Shown here piece after piece: positions 9,668 through 20,601 of a stretch of 61,374 nt of DNA. The stretch is from the IMG/VR virus record IMGVR_UViG_3300009790_000009, positions 1-61,374 of that record; one strand, given 5' to 3'. Within the stretch, counting starts at the first letter, position 1, and the number at the start of each line of letters is the position of its first letter. Source of the stretch: a virus. Taxonomy: Duplodnaviria; Caudoviricetes. The position numbers and the translations under genes were made by a program. The notes under the pieces are model-generated. The model made no database searches, had not been told where the DNA came from, and saw nothing but the letters and a program-made list of their open reading frames with translations.

Positions 9668-9921
9668 TGTCAGAAAGATTTCAAAAAACAAATTTGCCCG
9701 GAATGGTTAAAGACCATGCGACTGGTGCAATACTAAATACTAATAAGGATGCTTTTGTAGCATATAAATCTAGGAAGGCTAAGATCATGGAATCGAATAA
9801 TAGAATTGATTCTATAGAGATGGTAGTAGCTAACTTACAAGTTGAATTACAAAAGAGTGATGATAAAATAACAGAGATTCATTCCATGTTAAAGGCAATG
9901 GTAGGAAATAATGGCGGATAA
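9667..9921 (+). CDS. Small conserved hypothetical protein with a C-terminal coiled coil
   Basis: VKDHATGAILNTN motif followed by a heptad-like helix; translationally coupled. Confidence 0.65.
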   Translation: MSERFQKTNLPGMVKDHATGAILNTNKDAFVAYKSRKAKIMESNNRIDSIEMVVANLQVELQKSDDKITEIHSMLKAMVGNNGG

Positions 9922-12658
9922 AAAATATATATCAGCAAATATAGCGTATCAAACTGATACATTTGGTGCTTGGGTTGAAAGAACCAACCAGATGGTATTT
10001 GATATGTCTGAAAGAGTAGTTACTGCACAAGTAAACTCCATAGGTGCTGCTACAACAGGTAATGTCGTAGTAACATCTAATGTATGGAATAGTGATACTA
10101 GCGCATATGTAAATTCAACAGGTGGTGTATTTCAAGCTAATACAATAGCAGCATATGATTATTTAAGAGGTGGTAGTGTAGCCACAGAAGGTATTTTATA
10201 TATTACTTCTAATACAAATATGTCTAATGGAAGTGTTAATGTAGCATCTAACTCAACAGTCAATTCAGTAACAATTAAAGGCACATGGGCAGATATAGAA
10301 TCAACAACAGCTTATGTAAATGGTACAACATTACAAGTTAGTTCTAATGTTCATATTAATAGTACATCAACTAACACATCAATTAATTCAACATCATTAC
10401 ATGTAACTGGTACAACATTAGATATTAATTCAACAACAGTTGATATGGATGGCACCGCATTAACATATGACGGTGATAATGTTACAGTAACTGCTAATGA
10501 TATAACATTAAAATCAAATTCAACTATATCAGTTGTAGACATTAATGGAGACGGAACTTCCTCTTCAGTAACACTTGCTGGTAATTTAGTTACAGTAGAT
10601 TCAGACGAATCAAACTTTAATGCTAATGTTACATTTGGATCCAATGATAGTGATACTGTCACAGTAACATCAGTAATAGATTCAGATGTTAAACCTTCTG
10701 CTAATTCAAAAGCATTAGGTAATACAACAGCCAGATGGGATATTAGTGCAGAAGATATAGATGCATCTAATACATTAAACGTATCTGGTAATGCAACTTT
10801 CTTAAGCGATGTTCAATTAGGTAATGCTAATACTGATACAATTGATTGGCAAGCCGAAGTAGAAGGCAATATAAATCCAATATCTAATTCATATGGATTA
10901 GGTTTAAATGATGCTAGATGGGATATTAAAGGTACAGCAGGTAACTTTAGCACAGACTTATCAGTAACAAAAACAATTACAGGATCCAATACATTAACTA
11001 TAGCAGGACAAGCTAATTTAAATAGCACAGTTAATATTACAGGAGCAGCAGCTTTATCAAATACACTAGGTGTTACTGGCGCTGCTACATTAAGTAATAC
11101 ACTAGGTGTTACTGGTGCTACTACTTTATCAAATACATTAGCGGTAACAAATACAGCTACATTTAGTAATACAGGATCCTTTGCAGGATTATTATCAACT
11201 GTAGATATTAATACTACTGGATCTGTTAATGCAACAGCTGGTATGAATGTAGGTGCTAATGTTAATGTTAATACTTCACAAATTTCAATTGGTAACTCAA
11301 CACAGAATACTTATTTTAATGCAACAGGAATCGAAACAGACGGAACATTAGGTGTTAATAAGACTATTACAGGAGCCAACACTCTAGTAATATCCGGAGC
11401 TGCAACTCTTCAAAACACCTTAGCGTTAACAGGTGCTGCTACATTAAGTAATACTTTAGGCGTTACCGGTGTAACAACATTTACTGCTAATGCCGTTAGT
11501 GGTAATGTAGAAATTTCACAAGCTAAAATCACAGTAGGTAATTCAACTGTTAATGCAGTAATAGCAGATAGCGGTAATATAACAACAGATGGTGCATTAG
11601 ATGTATTAGGTGGATCTACACTTAGAGGTGGATTAACATCTGTAGCTGGTGCTACTTTACAAGCAGGAGCTGATGTCACAGGTAATGTTGATGTTAATGC
11701 TGCTGTTAATATTGGTGCTAATGTTACTTTAGGAACTGAAACACTTAAAATAGGTAACTCAACAGTCAATGCAGTTGTTGGCGCAGCTGCTGGTATTCAT
11801 ACTAAAGGTGACATTACTGGTAATGGTGCTATCACTGTTGGTGGCGCAGGTGCTATAGGAACAACTTTATCAGCTGGTAATACAGATATAACAGGTTATA
11901 TAAATGTATCATCAACATCTAATGTTGGTGGTGTTGCATGGTTTAGAAATAATATAAATCAAGCTACAGGCAAGTATGCTAATTTATCTAATGTTAAAAT
12001 AACCGGTAATGTAACAACCAATGTAATACATACAGGTACAAGAGCAAGTTTAGTTTCAAATAATATAAACTTAACAGCTTCAGCATTAACTGTAACTCCA
12101 GATGCTACATTTAACGAAGATGTTACTGTATCTGGTAACTTAACAGTTCAAGGAACAACATCATTATCATCTAGTAGTGCATTATCATTAAACGTCGCTA
12201 CAATGACTTCTTTAACAGTATCGGGTTCTGCTAACCTAGCAGGTAACGTCCATATTGGTGAAACGTATGCTGACGATGTTATTAATTTTAATGGTAAACT
12301 TAATACAAACATCATGCCACTTGCTAATGGTAAGTCACTCGGTAATACAACAAAAACATTTAACGTCTATGCTGGAACAGTCGATGCGTCTGGAGCAGTA
12401 GGTGTTGCTGGTGCACTAACAATTAACACTTCATCACAAACAGGGTCCGCAGTACATTCTGGTGACGTTAGAATAGGTAATTCAACTTCTAATACTATTA
12501 TTTCCGGCTCAGGTGGTGCAATGACGGTAGATTCTACTTTAACAGTAGATGGCTCGTCAAATGTCGTAGGAGATTTTAGTATCCATTCAGATATAAAGAA
12601 TGAATCGGGAACACCGTTCAGAGTCTTATATGCGAATGGCGACGTAGCTTGGCCATAA
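9911..12658 (+). CDS. Tail fibre-like or baseplate-attached structural protein (915 aa)
   Basis: N-terminal DTFGAWVERTN attachment-type motif, S/T/N/G-rich beta repeats and 12-aa repeats GA(A/T)xLSNTLxVT. Confidence 0.65.
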   Translation: MADKKYISANIAYQTDTFGAWVERTNQMVFDMSERVVTAQVNSIGAATTGNVVVTSNVWNSDTSAYVNSTGGVFQANTIAAYDYLRGGSVATEGILYITSNTNMSNGSVNVASNSTVNSVTIKGTWADIESTTAYVNGTTLQVSSNVHINSTSTNTSINSTSLHVTGTTLDINSTTVDMDGTALTYDGDNVTVTANDITLKSNSTISVVDINGDGTSSSVTLAGNLVTVDSDESNFNANVTFGSNDSDTVTVTSVIDSDVKPSANSKALGNTTARWDISAEDIDASNTLNVSGNATFLSDVQLGNANTDTIDWQAEVEGNINPISNSYGLGLNDARWDIKGTAGNFSTDLSVTKTITGSNTLTIAGQANLNSTVNITGAAALSNTLGVTGAATLSNTLGVTGATTLSNTLAVTNTATFSNTGSFAGLLSTVDINTTGSVNATAGMNVGANVNVNTSQISIGNSTQNTYFNATGIETDGTLGVNKTITGANTLVISGAATLQNTLALTGAATLSNTLGVTGVTTFTANAVSGNVEISQAKITVGNSTVNAVIADSGNITTDGALDVLGGSTLRGGLTSVAGATLQAGADVTGNVDVNAAVNIGANVTLGTETLKIGNSTVNAVVGAAAGIHTKGDITGNGAITVGGAGAIGTTLSAGNTDITGYINVSSTSNVGGVAWFRNNINQATGKYANLSNVKITGNVTTNVIHTGTRASLVSNNINLTASALTVTPDATFNEDVTVSGNLTVQGTTSLSSSSALSLNVATMTSLTVSGSANLAGNVHIGETYADDVINFNGKLNTNIMPLANGKSLGNTTKTFNVYAGTVDASGAVGVAGALTINTSSQTGSAVHSGDVRIGNSTSNTIISGSGGAMTVDSTLTVDGSSNVVGDFSIHSDIKNESGTPFRVLYANGDVAWP

Positions 12659-12676: not shown

Positions 12677-15148
12677 ATGTCGAATCCCCTAAAAATGATC
12701 GCACACGCCAACGGGGTATATGCGAATGGCGTTCAAGAGACTTCTTCTGCAGAATTAGACTATCTGTCTAAGCTTCTCTTAATTAAAATGGGTACCGAAT
12801 CTGGTACTGGAGATAATACTGCCGATCTTAATATTGATTCAACAGGATCCTCTGTAGGTACTTTTGTTGATGAATATGCCAATGCAGAAATACTTTCTCA
12901 TGATAGCCCAGCTATTACAAGCACGACTTATACTTTTAAACAAAATACAGCTACAGCATCTGAATCTGGTATTCATCATTTAGTCACACATGATGGTGAT
13001 AATAGTAATCCAGGAACAATTAGAATATTAACAGATGCAGAATTAAATGTAGTAATAGATTTAGCAATATCAGAAATATCAAAAGCTAATTCAACTTATG
13101 CTGCACCAGGAACATATTACGTAAGTTCTTCTTCTCCAAGTATTGGTGGTACGTGGGTAGCACAAGATACTTTCTATGATGAATTAACCAATCATGCAAA
13201 TGATGATGATGAAAAAGTTACTTATAAACTTTGGCGTAAAACATCATATGATAATTCTCCATCTACTATTCCATTATTAAAACAAATTAATGGTGCTCTT
13301 AAAGTTCAAACAGAAGATGAATTAGAAAATTTAACATCTAGATTAAGAAATAGAATTATAGGGACTAGTAAAGGAAAATATGTTTTCCAAGCCTCTGCAC
13401 CAGGAGCAGGAACATGGGTAGCTAGAGGAACAGCAACAAATAGAAAACCACAAATTAGTGGTGTTCAATATACTGGAACTTATTCAGATCAATATGCTGG
13501 CCAGTATGGTAGAGCTTTCGCTAGACAGTTTGCTCGCCAATTTACCAGACAATATTCTGCACAATATACAGTTCAGTTTTTAAGACAGTTTCAAAGAGTT
13601 TATACTGGTCAATATGAAAGACAATACTCTAGACAATTTGCTAGAGGAACAGCTGGAGCTCAGTTTGCAGCTACTCAATATGCTAGAGTTTATTCAGCGC
13701 AATATACAAGAGAAACACCAAGCACAACATATTCAGATGGTCAATATGATAGAGTAACACCAGGACCACAGTATGGAGTTCAATATACTAGAATATATTC
13801 TGCCAACTATTCAGATGGTCAGTACGATAGAGAAAGACCGGGACCACAATACGCATCACAGTTCTTAAGAGAATATGCTGGTGGCACTTATGCCGTTTCG
13901 TATGTTCGTCAAACTCCTAGTACACAATATAATGCTCAATATCAAAGAATATATTCTGTTAACTATTCAGTTGCTTATACAAGATCAAATTATACTAGAA
14001 TATATGGTGGTTACGGTTATGCAATAGGTTATGCTGTTACTTATGGAGTATTATACGCTAGAACTAGACCAGGACCTAATTATAATAGATCAACACCAGG
14101 ACCACAATATTCTGGTACATCATATCAGAGATGGTTTGCATCAGGCCCATATCCAGAAAACTATTATCTAGGACCATATTATCCGTTTGGACCTATTCCT
14201 TATGCAAGACATGCATTTACTGGTATGTTCTATAGAGGACCTGCTTATGCAAGAGCAACTTACCATGCTCCAGGTACTGGTTATACGAGTTTCCATGCTA
14301 CCCCTATAGGGGAACCTGTCATTCTAACTTTCTATAGAACGGCTGGTTTTGGTAGAGTTAGCTATTCCGGGCCTGGTTCTGGTTATGCTAATATTTTCTA
14401 TAGAGAATTTGCTGGTCCACAATATGCTCCACAGTATAGTAGAACTTATTCAGCCCAATATGGTAGAACTTATACAGCTCAATATTCAGTTTACTATACT
14501 AGAACATATTATTTTAGAAACTATTATTATAGAGCAAGACCTGGACCAAATTATGCACAAACGTATTCCAGATCATTTGCTAGAAATAATCCTGGTCCTC
14601 TATATGCTGGTACACAATATACTAGAATGGTCTATGCACTATATACTGCAACAGCATATTCAAGATATAGACCAGGTCCACAATATACAGGTCAGTTTGC
14701 TAGAGCATATGATGGTCAATATGCAAGACAATTTACTAGATCAACTCCTAGCACACAATATACAGTTCAATATGCTAGAGAATATGCTGGCCAATATGCA
14801 AGACAATTTACTAGAGTAGTTACAGCTCAGTATACTAGAATTACTCCTGGTCCACAATATAACCTTACATATGAGAGACAATATGTTGGTCAATATACAG
14901 GTTATTATGCTAGGGGTGATCAATATACTAGAGCAACTCCAGGACCTATATATGCAGGAGCACAATATACTGTGCAATATGCCAGAACTACGGGTGGCCC
15001 ACAATATGAATCGCAATATGCAGGGGCACAATATACTATACAATATACAGGACAATATGCAGGATCAAGGTTACATCAATATACCGGAGACACAGTTACA
15101 GCAACTAATGATTCCGATACAAAGACCTTGTGGTTAAGGGTAGCATAA
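12677..15148 (+). CDS. Tyr/Arg/Gln-rich repeat protein 1, putative long beta-hairpin virion fibre
   Basis: About 260-aa N-terminal domain paralogous to the next ORF (KLWRKTS, LRNRII, FQASAPG.GTW), then QY/RxY/PGP repeats around a unique centre; ends LWLRVA. Confidence 0.7.
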   Translation: MSNPLKMIAHANGVYANGVQETSSAELDYLSKLLLIKMGTESGTGDNTADLNIDSTGSSVGTFVDEYANAEILSHDSPAITSTTYTFKQNTATASESGIHHLVTHDGDNSNPGTIRILTDAELNVVIDLAISEISKANSTYAAPGTYYVSSSSPSIGGTWVAQDTFYDELTNHANDDDEKVTYKLWRKTSYDNSPSTIPLLKQINGALKVQTEDELENLTSRLRNRIIGTSKGKYVFQASAPGAGTWVARGTATNRKPQISGVQYTGTYSDQYAGQYGRAFARQFARQFTRQYSAQYTVQFLRQFQRVYTGQYERQYSRQFARGTAGAQFAATQYARVYSAQYTRETPSTTYSDGQYDRVTPGPQYGVQYTRIYSANYSDGQYDRERPGPQYASQFLREYAGGTYAVSYVRQTPSTQYNAQYQRIYSVNYSVAYTRSNYTRIYGGYGYAIGYAVTYGVLYARTRPGPNYNRSTPGPQYSGTSYQRWFASGPYPENYYLGPYYPFGPIPYARHAFTGMFYRGPAYARATYHAPGTGYTSFHATPIGEPVILTFYRTAGFGRVSYSGPGSGYANIFYREFAGPQYAPQYSRTYSAQYGRTYTAQYSVYYTRTYYFRNYYYRARPGPNYAQTYSRSFARNNPGPLYAGTQYTRMVYALYTATAYSRYRPGPQYTGQFARAYDGQYARQFTRSTPSTQYTVQYAREYAGQYARQFTRVVTAQYTRITPGPQYNLTYERQYVGQYTGYYARGDQYTRATPGPIYAGAQYTVQYARTTGGPQYESQYAGAQYTIQYTGQYAGSRLHQYTGDTVTATNDSDTKTLWLRVA

Positions 15149-15184: not shown

Positions 15185-18043
15185 GTGGCGAATCCTTTAA
15201 AAATTAATACAAGTTCAGGTCAACCAAATACCACAAACTGGTCTGGCCTAAAAACAATGTCTGCAGCAGAGATGGACTATGCTTGTTATAAAATCCTTAC
15301 AAATTTCGCTACCGAAGCTAACTCAACTACATCTTATGTTGGTGATTTAAATACAATAGGCCTTGGTACTTCAAGAGGTGCTTACACAGATCAACGTTTT
15401 CAAGATGCAGTTGGCACTCACCCCTCAGCCGCATCCACTAATACTGTAGTAACAACTTTTTATCAAAATACTGATAGTGCATCAGAAACTAGTTTGATTA
15501 GACCATTAGAATGGCAAACCGGTGGACCTAAAGAACAAACAGACACTACTTTAAATAATTCTATTATAGATAGATGTTTAACTAAAATTGCAAATACATC
15601 TTCAGCTGCAATTGGTGAATATTATATTGATTCAACTGCTCCAGCAGGTGGAACATGGACAGAAGAAAAATCATTTACTGATACCTTAACTGCATCTGAT
15701 GGTACACATGCTACTTGGAAGCTTTGGAGAAAAACTTCTGATACCGCCCCTACAACAGTAAGACCTATTAAATGGTCTAATGGTGAAGGTCAGGATGGTA
15801 TTAATGAAATGACTGATACTGAGATTAATCATCTCACAGCTAGATTAAGAAATAGAATTATAGCTACTGGTGTTGGTACTTATGCATTTCAAGCTTCAGC
15901 ACCGGGAACAGGAACATGGACTCAAGTATCTGGTAATATAACAGATAATCAAGCTTCAATTGTAGCTACACAATATTCAGGACAATATACTGGAACATTC
16001 GGTAGACAGTTTGCCAGAACTTATTCAGCTCAATACGCTAGACAATTTACTAGAATATATTCAGCACAATATGGTAGACAGTTTGCCAGAACTTATTCAG
16101 CTCAATACGCTAGACAATTTGCTAGAACTTATTCTGCAGGCTATGGTCGACAATTTGCTAGAACATATGCAGGACAGTATGCAAGACAATTTACTAGAGT
16201 ATATCTAGGTCAATATCTTAGAGCTACAGATGGTCCTCAATACACAGTTCAATATACAAGAAATACTCCTGGACCACAATATACAGTTCAATATACAAGA
16301 ATAAATCCTGGACCTAATTACACTGATGGCCAATATACTAGAGCTACGCCAGGTCCTCAATATACTTCACAGTATGATAGAGCTACACCTGGACCTAATT
16401 ACACTGATGGTCAATATGCTAGAGCTACTGGTGGACCTCAATATACAGTTCAATACGCTAGAACTTATGCAGATCAATATACTGTTCAATATGCCAGAAC
16501 TTATTCTGCACAATATTCTAGACAGTTTGGTAGAGTATATTCAGTTACTTATGCAGTTCAATATGCAAGGGTATATTCAGTTAACTATGCTGTAAACTAT
16601 ACAAGACAATTTACAAGAGTAAGACCAGGACCTAATTATGCAGTTAACTATGGTAGATCAAGACCAGGACCAGCATACGGTGTTGCATATGGTAGATCAA
16701 GACCAGGACCAGCATACGGTGTTGCATATGGTAGATCAAGACCTGGACCTAGTTATTCTGTAGGATATACTGTTAACTATGGTAGAGTCTATTACGGATC
16801 TTATACAGTAAACTATGGTAGAGTATATTATGGATCCTATACAGTAAACTATGGTAGAACTTATTCTGGATCCTATACCAGTAACTATGGTAGAGTATAT
16901 TCTGGTAACTATGCTGGACCTGCTTATCAAAGACAAACTCTACATGAATTTTTTAATCCATGGAGTTATGAACCATATTTTAGATGGATAAATGGACCAA
17001 CTTATGGTGGTGGTAACTTTGCTAGGTCTAGACCAGGACCTGCTTATGGAGTATCATATGGTAGATCTAGACCAGGACCTGCTTATGGAGTATCATATGG
17101 TAGATCTAGACCTGGACCTGCTTATGGAGTATCATACGGTAGATCAAGGCCAGGACCAGCTTATGGAGTGCAATATTCTAGAAGCTTTGGTAGAGTCTAT
17201 TATGGATCCTATACTGTAAACTATGGTAGAGTCTATTATGGACAATATACTGTAAACTATGGTAGAGTCTATTCTGGGTCTTATGCTGTTAACTATGGTA
17301 GAACTTATTCTGGTCAATATAGTGGATCGGCATATGCTGTAAACTATACTAGACAAACTGGTGGACCACAATATACAGTAAACTATACTAGAATAAATCC
17401 TGGACCACAATATACAGTAAACTATGATAGAGCTACACCTGGTCCTCAATATACTGTTCAATATACTAGAGCTACTGGTGGACCTCAATATACTGTTCAA
17501 TACGCTAGAACTTATTCTGCACAATATGCTAGGCAGTTTGGTAGAATATATTCAGCACAATATGGTCGACAATTTGCTAGAACATATGCAGGACAGTATT
17601 CAAGACAATTCGGAAGAGTTTATTCCGTTCAATATACAATACAATATACTAGAGTATACGCTGGACAATATACAATACAATATACTAGAGTATATGGTGC
17701 TCAATATGATAGAGCAAGACCTGGACCTGGTTATTCCGACGGTCAATATACCAGAGCCACACCAGGACCTCAGTATAATATAGATTATGCTAGAGCGACT
17801 CCTGGTCCTCAATATACGGGAGATCAATATGCTAGAGCTACTGGTGGACCACAATATACTTCACAGTATGATAGAGCGACTCCCGGACCTAATTATACTG
17901 ATGGCCAGTATACTAGAGCTACTGGTGGACCACAATATACAGTGAATTACACTCAACAGTTTACAGGACAATATACTGGAGATACAGTGACATCAACTCC
18001 TGCGCTTAATAGTACATTAAAACTATGGCTTAGGGTTGCATAA
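15185..18043 (+). CDS. Tyr/Arg/Gln-rich repeat protein 2, putative long beta-hairpin virion fibre (GTG start)
   Basis: Paralogue of 12677-15148 with 48 repeat units of 12-13 aa around a 31-aa unique centre; ends LWLRVA. Confidence 0.7.
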   Translation: MANPLKINTSSGQPNTTNWSGLKTMSAAEMDYACYKILTNFATEANSTTSYVGDLNTIGLGTSRGAYTDQRFQDAVGTHPSAASTNTVVTTFYQNTDSASETSLIRPLEWQTGGPKEQTDTTLNNSIIDRCLTKIANTSSAAIGEYYIDSTAPAGGTWTEEKSFTDTLTASDGTHATWKLWRKTSDTAPTTVRPIKWSNGEGQDGINEMTDTEINHLTARLRNRIIATGVGTYAFQASAPGTGTWTQVSGNITDNQASIVATQYSGQYTGTFGRQFARTYSAQYARQFTRIYSAQYGRQFARTYSAQYARQFARTYSAGYGRQFARTYAGQYARQFTRVYLGQYLRATDGPQYTVQYTRNTPGPQYTVQYTRINPGPNYTDGQYTRATPGPQYTSQYDRATPGPNYTDGQYARATGGPQYTVQYARTYADQYTVQYARTYSAQYSRQFGRVYSVTYAVQYARVYSVNYAVNYTRQFTRVRPGPNYAVNYGRSRPGPAYGVAYGRSRPGPAYGVAYGRSRPGPSYSVGYTVNYGRVYYGSYTVNYGRVYYGSYTVNYGRTYSGSYTSNYGRVYSGNYAGPAYQRQTLHEFFNPWSYEPYFRWINGPTYGGGNFARSRPGPAYGVSYGRSRPGPAYGVSYGRSRPGPAYGVSYGRSRPGPAYGVQYSRSFGRVYYGSYTVNYGRVYYGQYTVNYGRVYSGSYAVNYGRTYSGQYSGSAYAVNYTRQTGGPQYTVNYTRINPGPQYTVNYDRATPGPQYTVQYTRATGGPQYTVQYARTYSAQYARQFGRIYSAQYGRQFARTYAGQYSRQFGRVYSVQYTIQYTRVYAGQYTIQYTRVYGAQYDRARPGPGYSDGQYTRATPGPQYNIDYARATPGPQYTGDQYARATGGPQYTSQYDRATPGPNYTDGQYTRATGGPQYTVNYTQQFTGQYTGDTVTSTPALNSTLKLWLRVA
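16651..17168 (+). repeat. Coding tandem repeats: 39-nt units (GRSRPGPAYGVxY) and 36-nt units (GRVYYGSYTVNY) flanking a unique centre
   Basis: Near-identical 39-nt units occur at about 16651-16750 and 17024-17168, for example agatctagaccaggacctgcttatggagtatcatatggt. Confidence 0.9.
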
Positions 18044-18088: not shown

Positions 18089-18514
18089 ATGGCCCGATTT
18101 AAGTCTGTCTTATGGGAAGACCCCAATACAAAATTAAGAGTTAGAGCGCGAGAAATCACCGATGGTGGTAGTCGTGATGTCATTATTGACAAAAATGATA
18201 AAGAGAACTGGGATGCAGTAATTGCAGAATTTCCTTTAGAAGAAATAGATAAAGCATCTCAAGAAGATGTAGAACAACATCGTGTAAGAAAGGCAAAGCA
18301 AGAAGCTGAAGAACGCGATAGTATGGAACGAAGATTCCAAGAAGAACTATTCAACGTTAAAGTTGAAGTATTTGAAATACCTGAAATAAAAGAATGCACC
18401 GACAAATTAATGAAGAGGCGTATTAGAAAGTCTAAATCATTTGCAGAGCTATATGTTTATGCAGCTGCAATAGTAGTAGCAGACGATCTTGCGAAAGCTG
18501 ATGTTTCAGGGTGA
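18089..18514 (+). CDS. Hypothetical charged helical protein (possible fibre assembly factor)
   Basis: GGAG RBS; immediately follows the two repeat genes. Function inferred from position only. Confidence 0.55.
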   Translation: MARFKSVLWEDPNTKLRVRAREITDGGSRDVIIDKNDKENWDAVIAEFPLEEIDKASQEDVEQHRVRKAKQEAEERDSMERRFQEELFNVKVEVFEIPEIKECTDKLMKRRIRKSKSFAELYVYAAAIVVADDLAKADVSG

Positions 18515-18893
18515 TCTATTAAATGGATGGCCAGAAGATGGCGAACCAGATAAGTCTACTTTATATAAAGTAAATATAAATGATATTGGTGGCGAGTTAT
18601 TAAAAGACACTGCACAATATACATTAAAAGATAATAAGCGTCTTAATAATTTAGTTCTTAGTAGCACATTCCTTAGAGCAAACCAAAAAACAAATGGCCA
18701 TACTCATAATGGTCAAGAAGAAGTATACTTCTTTATTAAAGGTAAAGGAAAGATGACTATTGATGATATTACTTTTGAAGTTAAAGAAGGTGATGTTATA
18801 TTAATTCCAGACGGCGCTTATCATAGAGTAATTAATGATAGTCATGTAGGACTATATTTTGTATGCGTGTTTGATGGAAAAAGAAACCACTAG
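18501..18893 (+). CDS. Cupin-domain protein
   Basis: HTHNGQEEVYFFIKGKG and GDVILIPDGAYHRVIN are the two cupin motifs; ATG at 18501 preferred as start. Confidence 0.85.
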   Translation: MFQGDLLNGWPEDGEPDKSTLYKVNINDIGGELLKDTAQYTLKDNKRLNNLVLSSTFLRANQKTNGHTHNGQEEVYFFIKGKGKMTIDDITFEVKEGDVILIPDGAYHRVINDSHVGLYFVCVFDGKRNH

Positions 18894-19017
18894 TATACTA
18901 GATAAAATAGAAAAAGTCCACCCAATGAGACAAGTATTTTGGGCTTCGATAGTACAAATTTGTGTGTTGGGTTTTATGGCTTTATGTATGTTTATAATAG
19001 GAGCAACAATTGGATAA
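18874..19017 (+). CDS. Small single-TM protein (47 aa, not in the ORF track)
   Basis: Translates as MEKETTSILDKIEKVHPMRQVFWASIVQICVLGFMALCMFIIGATIG* and fills the gap between its neighbours with short overlaps. Confidence 0.55.
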   Translation: MEKETTSILDKIEKVHPMRQVFWASIVQICVLGFMALCMFIIGATIG

Positions 19018-19777
19018 AGGCTTTGTAATATGTGTAACAGTGAAACCAGTCTTTGTTACGTTAGCATTAAATTTAATCGATTCTATTGATGAGTATTATC
19101 CTGATGCCAAAATAATGGTATCAACATTACCTCAATGGGCAGATGCATTTAAAGTATATGATCAAGTAGTAGAAGTTAGAACTGATGGTCCTAACAATAT
19201 AAGAAATAAGTTGTGGGCTTTACAGCATACACCATTTGATAAAACTTGTTATCTCGATGCTGATATGGAATTTAAATCAGAAAGAGCTAGTGAAGTGTGG
19301 GATCTATTAGATGATGATCATGATGTTGCATTCACTCAAATATGTCCACCAACAGGTATGACTACTGCAATTTATGAAGAAGAAGGTCGTAAAGAAATAA
19401 GAGATAATAATGTAGAAAGGCATTTAAGAAATCATGGAGGTTTCTTTCTATGGCATAAACATAAACCAAATGCTGTAAAAGCTATGAAGCGTTGGTGGGA
19501 ACTTTGGCAAGAGATTAATGAGAATGATAAATGGTGGGATGAGCGTCCTGAATACTTTAGAGCAAATCAATCATGGGATCAATTTTCATGGTGGTGGTTA
19601 ACTCAAAAAGAGATGCCAGAATTAAAAATACAAGAAATAGAAAATGATACTGCATATCAATATCAGTGGAATATGAATCCACAAGTATTTAAATTTATAG
19701 ATAAACCTGATGATTGGGAATTAATTATAGATCATCATCCAGCACATAAGGTGAAGAATGAGAGCGTACCAATATGA
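19010..19777 (+). CDS. Glycosyltransferase, GT-A fold (GT8-like)
   Basis: Contains NKLWALQHTPFDKTCYLDAD (DxD motif), NHGGFF and WDQFS; TTG start with a GGAG RBS. Confidence 0.75.
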   Translation: MDKGFVICVTVKPVFVTLALNLIDSIDEYYPDAKIMVSTLPQWADAFKVYDQVVEVRTDGPNNIRNKLWALQHTPFDKTCYLDADMEFKSERASEVWDLLDDDHDVAFTQICPPTGMTTAIYEEEGRKEIRDNNVERHLRNHGGFFLWHKHKPNAVKAMKRWWELWQEINENDKWWDERPEYFRANQSWDQFSWWWLTQKEMPELKIQEIENDTAYQYQWNMNPQVFKFIDKPDDWELIIDHHPAHKVKNESVPI

Positions 19778-20601
19778 TAATGAGAGATATCAATATAAGA
19801 AATAAAGAATTTATTGATTTGCTGAACAAACTAGAAGTAGTAATTAAGGACTGGGTTGAAAACAGATCCGATAAAATTATGGAGTTATTCCATATACATC
19901 AAAATCAACAATGTCCTGATGCAAGAAAAAGAGATGATAAGGTCCCAATGGATCATCCAGGCGGAGCAAGTGAATTATATGCTGCGCATGATTTATATCC
20001 ACCTTGTGGCAGAGAAATGTTGGACTTGATGATAGAAAAGACTAAACAACATGGACCGCATGCTGAACTTACTAATGGGTTTCCTAGTAGAGAAAATTTA
20101 GTTGCATATAGATCAATTGAATCACAACCATGGTATGATGAGACAAAAGAACCTTTAGAGTCAGCTATCAAGGATATATCTTATAAATATTTAGGTGGAG
20201 GGTCAATGGCATTAGCTGCGTTTTATCCTCCTGGTGGATATATAGGATGGCATCATAATGGTAATGCTCCAGGTTATAATATATTATTACATTATAATTT
20301 TGGGGGCACTGGGAATTTCTATACATTTGATAATAATGAAATAATTGCTTATCCAGATAAACCTAATGAATGGGTTTGTAGAGCAGGCGACTTCGTTATA
20401 GCACATAACGATTCACGTGCAGAAGAAGTCATACAAAGAGGACACCAAGTCCAGGGCGCTGTTCCAAGGGTAGCAAAAGATGTTGAAGGAATGTCATGGC
20501 ATTCAGCTGAGAATCCGGATACATGGAGATTTACATTATCAACTGTAATTAATGATTTCGACATAAGAGAAGATTTATTAGATGAAATAGAAACCCCCTA
20601 A
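19774..20601 (+). CDS. Putative 2OG-Fe(II) oxygenase or other double-stranded beta-helix enzyme
   Basis: Contains FYPPGGYIGWHHN, a distal SWHSA and WRFTLS in the spacing of DSBH oxygenases; HxN replaces the usual HxD. Confidence 0.6.
   Translation: MIMRDINIRNKEFIDLLNKLEVVIKDWVENRSDKIMELFHIHQNQQCPDARKRDDKVPMDHPGGASELYAAHDLYPPCGREMLDLMIEKTKQHGPHAELTNGFPSRENLVAYRSIESQPWYDETKEPLESAIKDISYKYLGGGSMALAAFYPPGGYIGWHHNGNAPGYNILLHYNFGGTGNFYTFDNNEIIAYPDKPNEWVCRAGDFVIAHNDSRAEEVIQRGHQVQGAVPRVAKDVEGMSWHSAENPDTWRFTLSTVINDFDIREDLLDEIETP

Follow-up and report, generated by a model that had tools for sequence, protein, structure and literature searches.

A fibre-like protein of an uncultured T4-like phage with a probable out-and-back stalk of two complementary repeat types

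How can a protein made largely of two short repeat types, alternating in blocks over hundreds of residues, be arranged in space? The question is raised by a gene at positions 15185-18043 of a 61,374-nucleotide stretch of viral DNA (IMG/VR record IMGVR_UViG_3300009790_000009, positions 1 to 61,374; hereafter the window, in whose coordinates all positions are given), which encodes a product of 952 amino acids (aa). A preliminary description, made from the sequence alone, had proposed that the chain runs out and back as a single antiparallel ribbon, repeats of one type facing repeats of the other. The reading that we favour, with a probability of about three in four (0.75), is that of a fibre-like structural protein with an out-and-back stalk of two complementary repeat types and a variable tip at its apex. 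The antiparallel, in-register course of the two arms put forward in that description is now supported, because four independent kinds of comparative evidence bear it out: antisymmetry in orthologues, covariation specific to one register, compensated insertions and deletions (indels) and a constant offset between the arms.

Splitting the translation of the open reading frame (ORF) at arginine gave 48 units and a unique centre of 31 aa (aa 583-613). Type A units read R-x-x-(P/G/D)-G-P-x-Y followed by a linker of 5-6 aa (13-14 aa overall), type B units read R-x-Y-x-x-x-Y-x followed by a linker of 4 aa (12 aa overall), and their order is B6 A6 B4 A4 B4, centre, A4 B4 A4 B6 A6; the same region can alternatively be described as 8-residue cores (R-x-x-P-G-P-x-Y for A, R-x-Y-x-x-x-Y-x for B) separated by linkers of 0-9 residues. 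Upon reflection about the centre, A lies opposite B at 24 of 24 levels and linker k of arm 1 lies opposite linker k+1 of arm 2, the arms measuring 321 and 319 aa in the coordinates of the preliminary description and 326 and 318 aa between the conserved anchors of the family. The irregularities are mirrored as well: the two truncated units of 8 aa coincide at level 6/7, the two missing linkers are also opposite, the lengthened linkers face one another at levels 16 and 20, and each of the nine normal-length RQF linkers stands opposite an Asp-containing linker, with TVQY-type linkers opposite TVQY or TIQY. No other unit register did as well as the true one (9 Arg-Asp pairs, 0 mismatches, 2 long-long pairs and 1 short-short pair), registers shifted by one unit giving 6 Arg-Asp pairs, and nine such pairs were reached in none of 200,000 free shuffles and in 59 of 100,000 block-preserving rotations or flips. 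Unit types and order, facing partners, arm lengths, mirrored irregularities and linker matches were all reproduced as first described, and the permutation results side with them.

Scans of IMG/VR and of metagenome contigs yielded three further complete orthologues in the same synteny (L005, L004 and L042). In L005 (1277 aa) arm 1 reads B12 A15 B3 A3 B1 A3 and arm 2, beyond the centre, B3 A1 B3 A3 B15 A12, with 37 of 37 levels pairing A with B after one degenerate A unit was split off by hand. From base to apex, arm 1 of L004 (1505 aa) runs B13 A22 and then B A B A B A B A B, that of L042 (1499 aa) B15 A20 B3 and then A B A B A B, and both are complementary at 44 of 44 levels. Over the four orthologues, the 952-aa protein included, A is thus opposite B at 149 of 149 levels, and the four run-length patterns differ. 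A near-identical copy of L005 (L037) scored 31 of 37 if a unit of its centre is counted as B, an off-by-one effect, and a partial orthologue (L003) agrees at the 9 levels visible by eye. In the paralogue clade, whose units are irregular, every possible reflection centre was scanned for the one that maximises A-facing-B minus A-facing-A contacts. The best centre fell within 6 residues of the apex predicted from the anchors in 21 of 26 relatives, A-A and B-B contacts being near zero there; for the paralogue in the window (12677-15148) it gave 62 A-B, 1 A-A and 0 B-B residues and lay 2 units of i+j from the anchor prediction, and other relatives gave 70/0/0, 62/0/0 and 77/0/0 in the same order.

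The N-terminal domain (N-domain) of the protein matched 391 proteins at E ≤ 1e-3 in a representative library. Both a start and a C-terminal motif of the T-x-x-T-x-x-L-W-x-R-x-A type are present in 137 of 169 stored family proteins, whose total lengths extend without a gap from 227 to 2282 aa. As judged from these sequences, the conserved parts of the family are both chain ends and the variable part is whatever sits between them, an insert that goes from a plain tight hairpin to more than 2000 aa. Short members are plain hairpins of Y-x-G-x tetrads, and in all six members with a recognisable tight turn arm 1 exceeds arm 2 by 7 residues, at arm-2 lengths from 9 to 53. When this rule is applied to the 952-aa protein (anchors at aa 256 and 931), the apex falls at aa ~596-599, in the middle of the unique centre. 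The largest non-repetitive core lies in the middle fifth (0.4-0.6) of the insert in 51 of 77 homologues as compared to an expected 20%, according to a heuristic self-similarity measure by which the other 26 fall outside that interval.

Linker states were tallied in the 952-aa protein, L005 and L004, with L042 left out. Facing linkers combined as Asp-RQF in 29 cases, neutral-R(A/S/G)F in 25, neutral-neutral in 17, none-none in 9, long-long in 7 and TRGQF-GQ(Y/F) in 6, with 9 exceptions; the ratio of conforming to breaking pairs was 51/9 in the true register, as compared to 7-9/80-81 after a shift of one unit and 28-29/37-42 after a shift of two. Among the 149 core pairs of the four orthologues, Arg at position 3 of the A core (A3) met Gly at position 5 of the B core (B5) 54 times and another residue 5 times, Gly met a residue other than Arg 17 times and 73 pairs contained neither, the summed core mutual information reaching 10.95 bits in the true register versus 5.4-8.2 bits in shifted ones. 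The support for Arg-Asp proximity, as in the bridges that had been proposed, comes from covariation only. Indels of at least 4 aa outside the apex zone were compared in close homologue pairs, a partner being an indel of the same sign in the other arm, within 12 residues of the same height: 21 of 37 were compensated, against a null mean of 6.5 and a null maximum of 17 in 5000 trials. P0004, for instance, differs from P0009 by +7, +16 and +9 at heights 170, 187 and 220 of one arm and by +7, +24 and +5 at heights 172, 197 and 224 of the other, and P0012 differs from P0035 by +16 at height 212 and by +18 at height 219 of the other arm. In three of four close pairs the 100 aa next to the base diverged least in both arms, and the region around the centre diverged most.

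Structure prediction informs mainly on the base. AlphaFold was run on the 952-aa protein as a monomer with a 113-row alignment, and a second model was made for a 373-aa homologue (P0044). The first model is confident for aa 1-270 and 925-952, including two long strands (252-268 and 926-950) that span the first and the last tetrads of the repeat region, and within the arms its confidence is limited to the first ~17-25 residues of each; in the second, strands 231-251 and 343-371 are confident, and the expected G-G-R-N apex coincides with the turn of a hairpin of low confidence (283-295/298-311). The conserved base consists of both chain ends, and in the models the stalk begins as two strands, with 252-268 and 926-950 probably pairing with each other. 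A three-copy complex prediction for a 308-aa homologue (P0094), made without controls, scored 0.00 and gives no verdict. Foldseek returned no match at E ≤ 0.001 for the full model against BFVD or for the P0044 model against the PDB, and the N-domain sequence retrieved one chance-level row from PDB chains (E 0.17). In an exhaustive fold search with VIA, the four best matches of the P0044 model were all beta-prisms of MABP type (8b6v_A, Z 7.0 over 117 aa at 3.7 Å; 2qp2_A, Z 6.9; 3tow_A, Z 5.3; 6sb1_A, Z 5.0), covering 110-117 residues at scores below 8, which according to the VIA warning may reflect a common arrangement. The MABP beta-prism fold is a lead for the base domain rather than an assignment.

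In the architecture that we propose, the first ~255 residues and the last ~20, the latter returning as a beta-strand, would make up the globular base, and everything between them would be an excursion: the chain would go out along arm 1, turn in the 31-aa centre and come back along arm 2, antiparallel and in register. An A core would always stand opposite a B core and a linker opposite a linker of matching length and state: an Asp linker for RQF, a neutral one for R(A/S)F and, for TRGQF, a GQ(Y/F) linker devoid of Arg. Within the cores, Arg at A3 would pair with Gly at B5 and the extra Tyr of the B core would pack on the Pro-Gly-Pro of the facing A core, while Arg-Asp linker pairs would fix the register; B opposite B would cause a clash, and A opposite A a gap. 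The comparisons presented above show arms coupled unit by unit in antiparallel register, as far as sequences can tell. Beta structure would continue along the whole stalk, and the pairing probably occurs within one chain. With 326 residues of 0.33 nm each, the stalk would be ~108 nm long, or shorter in the case of a twisted ribbon. The centre would constitute the distal tip and, judged from its variability, probably the host-contacting part. An A(n)B(n) block read backwards would be its own partner, and owing to this self-complementarity a direct duplication across the apex would lengthen the stalk with the pairing kept, which would explain why the DNA repeats are direct and not inverted and how the family attains its range of lengths. 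We lean slightly towards the more far-reaching claim of a genuine multi-letter code, in which the facing units of a single chain are specified by two core types, some four linker states and one or more switches in side-chain size (Arg vs. Gly), and A(n)B(n) duplications extend the stalk from a turn of 4 residues to arms of over 1000 residues each, i.e., from a few nm to hundreds.

A number of observations weigh against the proposed architecture or limit its support. Taken alone, the A/B run pattern is weak, since ten alternating runs are complementary automatically and their palindromic lengths have a p of ~10/210 under a run-length shuffle (about 1 in 20); moreover, stretches of the two arms are direct repeats at the DNA level (75-78% identity), and inverted ones are absent. 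Replication was therefore sought, and it is linkers and homologues that provide the decisive support. Nine of the 60 rule-bearing linker pairs are exceptions, only the RQF-Asp class had been stated before the orthologues were inspected, the other linker classes and the A3/B5 pair being drawn up afterwards, the repeats within one protein are related by duplication, so that the counts are not independent events, and covariation is blind to whether pairing occurs within a chain or between chains. None of the 10 indels in the pairs P0011/P0018 and P0017/P0039 was compensated; compensation, whose constancy the preliminary description had proposed to test, is well above the null without being universal. 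Likewise, the complementary unit order expected of homologues was found in the three complete orthologues, but another sequence (L035, 952 aa, with an N-G-P unit subtype) reached 18 of 21 levels with a crude parse, and 5 of the 26 looser relatives (P0005, P0007, P0017, P0039 and P0073) failed the reflection test. For aa 274-922 AlphaFold returned a predicted local distance difference test (pLDDT) score of 30-45 and no secondary structure, which is uninformative for or against a hairpin, and the mid-stalk of P0044 had a pLDDT of about 40. The insert (aa 257-931, 675 aa, window 15953-17977) contains 71 Arg versus 12 Asp and 2 Glu, which leaves most Arg without an acidic partner, and function and location of the protein are read from the gene neighbourhood only.

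Among the other explanations, the one that survives best retains the same antiparallel, in-register pairing and places it between chains, in a domain-swapped dimer or a head-to-tail polymer where each N-domain would be completed by the C-terminal strand from an adjacent subunit. Most phage fibres are oligomeric, the AlphaFold monomer failed to fold the stalk, and indel compensation is as blind to chain identity as covariation is. Where the turn has 4 residues and the arms no more than 9-20, however, a chain can hardly avoid folding on itself, the monomer models place the C-terminal strand at pLDDT >90, and the arm offset of 7 remains constant from 9 to 53 residues; we consider pairing between chains improbable. 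Much less can be said for a stalk whose units have no fixed partner, be it a disordered Tyr/Arg/Gly/Gln-rich "sticker and spacer" chain or a labile cross-beta former. The composition (17.9% Y, 12.7% G, 10.5% R, 10.2% T and 9.3% Q, a single His and no Lys, Met or Cys in the insert) and the very low AlphaFold confidence would suit such a chain, but from disorder one would expect neither exact antisymmetry in four orthologues nor covariation tied to one register nor indels matched in height, and we regard it as very unlikely.

Scarcely any credit is left for an arrangement that was already disfavoured, in which each B run folds with the adjacent A run into one of five local hairpins, or the repeats form a beta-solenoid, and antisymmetry is a by-product of duplication. 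In the 952-aa protein adjacent runs are indeed equal (6/6, 4/4, 4/4, 4/4 and 6/6), and the direct DNA repeats in its arms would agree with such a history. In L005, on the contrary, adjacent runs are unequal (12, 15, 3, 3, 1, 3) and facing runs equal, which excludes both local hairpins and a plain history of duplication, and the counts are exchanged between its direct-repeat partners (B12 A15 at one end, the start, and B15 A12 at the other), an exchange that duplication cannot produce and selection for pairing can; besides, five local hairpins account for at most 6 of the 9 Arg-Asp matches that the global register explains in full. A chance pattern in a low-complexity ORF, or the lack of a real gene, had already been rejected and has practically no probability, given that the run palindrome alone (p ~0.05 under the run-length shuffle) stands against a long conserved ORF with a conserved domain, syntenic orthologues and a paralogue, shuffle controls that reject chance, and a rule that recurs in independent contigs.

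The preliminary description knew of no comparable code, a statement that needs qualification as to complementary-repeat stalks. Our literature searches, which covered open-access text only, found no description of the family. Streptococcal adhesins of the AgI/II type (SpaP/P1, SspB, BspA) already possess such a stalk: their chain goes out and returns, each arm supplies its own repeat type, PxxP pockets in the P repeats of the long stalk so formed take up and lock the Tyr of the A repeats, a variable domain at the apex is lifted by more than 50 nm and the base is locked by N- and C-terminal regions (PMC7732690). The phage protein resembles the A/P stalk in having complementary repeat types on opposite arms and a variable apex, and AgI/II, as portrayed there, provides a precedent for the packing of Tyr on Pro proposed here. 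The repeats of AgI/II are 82 and 39 aa long and combine an alpha-helix with a polyproline-II helix, whereas the phage units count 12-13 aa and the model shows beta-strand where it is confident, although its P-G-P cores could be similar to polyproline II. In AgI/II each arm carries one repeat type, whereas in the phage protein both types are interleaved in blocks on both arms, antisymmetrically and with matched linker states. Pfam detects no AgI/II domain in the phage protein, its C-terminus is L-W-L-R-V-A and not LPXTG, and its gene lies in a virion module, while AgI/II is a cell-wall adhesin.

Gp37, at the tip of the T4 long tail fibre, offers a second comparison. Its chain returns so that collar D10 consists of residues 811-881 and 1010-1026, the receptor-binding tip lies at the turn, a strand Gly packs against an aromatic residue of another strand (G921-F970), and the needle is a short trimer that holds seven iron ions on His triplets (PMC6957217). 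Both proteins send the chain out and back and build the base from segments before and after the excursion, here the N-domain and the C-terminal strand, but neither the 952-aa protein nor its paralogue contains an H-x-H motif, and the phage protein is 3-10 times longer than the gp37 needle and has two complementary repeat types. No homology was detected; T4 gp11 (1el6_A), a relative of the collar, whose fold is shared by gp10, gp11 and gp12, gave a Foldseek E of 0.67 and a VIA Z of 2.5 over 45 residues. With regard to the MABP lead, an extraordinarily long beta-hairpin is described to extend from the MABP domain of MPEG1 and to bind membranes by its tip (PMC6753088). That hairpin is non-repetitive and counts tens of residues as compared to hundreds in the phage stalk, and no sequence similarity to MABP domains (MVB12B, perforin-2/MPEG1, C-terminal domain of Plu-MACPF) was found. 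SMC and Rad50 proteins also join N- and C-termini into a head, from which a long antiparallel two-segment arm with matching lengths and interruptions leads to a functional apex; their arms are alpha-helical coiled coils with heptads in an ATPase, and the phage protein, which has no heptads, resembles them in topology and evolutionary constraint only. AgI/II is reportedly treated by Larson et al. in 2010, the gp37 tip is said to be the subject of Bartual et al. in the same year, and aromatic rescue of glycine is reportedly described by Merkel and Regan in 1998. The phage protein works like the AgI/II stalk and the gp37 needle and is a member of neither; what is new is a short two-type unit code interleaved antisymmetrically on both arms, together with matched linker states, compensatory evolution and the length range of the family.

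Some relatives show unusual plans. P0005 (669 aa, on a 152-kb contig) looks like a chimera of the tandem paralogues: up to a junction where a B run gives way to an A run it follows the 823-aa type (N-domain and arm 1, 76% identical to P0004), and from there on it has the terminal A run and the C-terminus typical of the 952-aa protein. It has no unique centre and poor complementarity (A-B 40, A-A 13, B-B 13), and represents either a natural deletion between paralogues or an assembly collapse. P0017, P0039 and P0073 have two irregular regions and a largest unique core only ~65 aa into the insert, their best reflection centre lies ~55-65 residues beyond the anchor prediction, and their plan may be branched or include two excursions. 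The apex of L004 (aa ~833-928) resembles the centres of the P0006 group, with shared P-Y-(F/Y)-G-P-P-T, Y-Y-R-G and G-(Q/G)-Y-K-G-F motifs. Its likeness to the other paralogue class suggests that tips are exchanged between the two fibre genes.

The features of the gene are collected in Table 1. The window (61 kb) is a fragment of a T4-like myophage genome, for which CheckV estimates a completeness of 34%, and contains genes for a gp6-like baseplate wedge protein, terminase, sheath, portal, scaffold and major capsid protein along with large ORFs of the baseplate region and tail-fibre-like ORFs; the major capsid protein shares 75% identity with its counterpart in Stenotrophomonas phage DLP_6 and 70% with the one in Methylophilales phage Melnitz. 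The source of the 952-aa protein is best explained as an uncultured marine T4-like myophage. The neighbourhood suggests a fibre associated with the baseplate or tail, and the protein would be located in the virion and have a role in host binding. Its paralogue lies directly upstream, the two N-domains being 42% identical, and a PHROGs search assigned neither of the two tandem proteins to a family. Pfam hits to DUF2158 (1.4e-5) and DUF5808 (9.1e-5), which are whole-protein E-values, were rejected as compositional; no matched stretch passes alone, and the best ones, of 21 and 10 residues, both lie within the repeats. The stalk would bear a net charge near +57, for the balance or use of which we have no explanation.

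Table 1. Coordinates of the fibre-like gene, its parts and its paralogue in the window.
Feature	Position	Strand	Description
Whole fibre-like gene	15185..18043	+	952 aa plus stop; GTG start; GGGGAAAG ribosome-binding-like site ahead of start
N-terminal globular anchor domain, aa 1-256	15185..15952	+	Conserved core of the family; pLDDT mostly >90
Arm 1, aa 257-582, putative outgoing half of stalk	15953..16930	+	Lead-in tetrads, linker L0 (RQFA), then B6 A6 B4 A4 B4
Unique 31-aa centre, aa 583-613, candidate apex/distal tip	16931..17023	+	Aromatic/Pro/Gly-rich; low self-similarity core, arm lengths 319/317
Arm 2, aa 614-931, putative returning half of stalk	17024..17977	+	A4 B4 A4 B6 A6 plus closing tetrads
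Conserved C-terminal strand, G-D-T-V ... L-W-L-R-V-A	17978..18040	+	Returns to N-domain; strand 926-950 pLDDT 91-97
Left A4 B4 block	16622..16921	+	Direct DNA repeat of 17030-17329, 78% identity
Right A4 B4 block, far side of centre	17030..17329	+	Direct DNA repeat of 16622-16921
Arm 1 A6 region	16249..16484	+	Repeated directly, at 76% DNA identity, in the arm 2 A6 region (17743-17978)
Tandem paralogue, 823 aa	12677..15148	+	N-domain, irregular A/B arms, ~90-aa aromatic centre, same C-terminal strand

The ORFs around the two fibre genes are partly conserved in position. Directly upstream of the paralogues lies a 915-aa ORF (9911-12658) with no Pfam or PHROG family, and L004 has a 987-aa ORF at that place. 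A small cupin ORF (18489-18893; Cupin_2, E 1.7e-13) separates the fibre gene from a conserved downstream pair, and in the corresponding interval of L004 and L005 no ORF of at least 150 aa, the minimum length listed, was found. The downstream pair consists of two overlapping ORFs of 255 and 275 aa (19010-19777 and 19774-20601), conserved in position in L004 with 47% and 39% identity to its counterparts, and similar-sized ORFs also follow the L005 orthologue. The first has a D-A-D motif and a sub-threshold match to glycosyltransferase family 2 (E 0.03), the second yielded weak leads only, to clusters of 2OG-Fe(II)/Asp-Asn hydroxylases (Atlas score 0.86). Speculatively, the two could be modifying or assembly factors for the Pro/Thr/Tyr-rich stalk.

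Among deposited phage genomes, tblastn of the N-domain and of a further homologue (P0130) found C48C1 (Kyanoviridae) to be the sole deposited phage with a homologue. The latter (L001, positions 141011-151054 of the record) is annotated as a hypothetical protein, its coordinates imply ~3347 aa, and it adjoins baseplate, tail-fibre and tail-chaperone genes; P0130 matched 16 places within the C48C1 record, which indicates a highly repetitive sequence. Megablast of the gene against phages and tblastn of P0094 returned nothing, and a search of the ESM Atlas with the N-domain yielded nothing but viral clusters without a name (scores 0.87-0.89).

Should the pairing prove real, it would provide a first structural and evolutionary explanation for a large and as yet unnamed family of structural phage proteins, with its 391 matches. 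The family would exhibit a natural code of repeats by which an antiparallel stalk of extreme length is held in register and can change its length through paired insertions, i.e., a protein analogue of reverse-complement pairing and an evolvable design rule for very long rods of two segments, which would be of direct use in designing rigid rods and in reading, for uncultured phages, the length of a fibre from its sequence. Since the tip and the adjacent stalk would be contiguous in the gene, the distal and probably host-contacting part of the fibre would constitute a single swappable cassette, with a bearing on the evolution of host range in marine T4-like phages.

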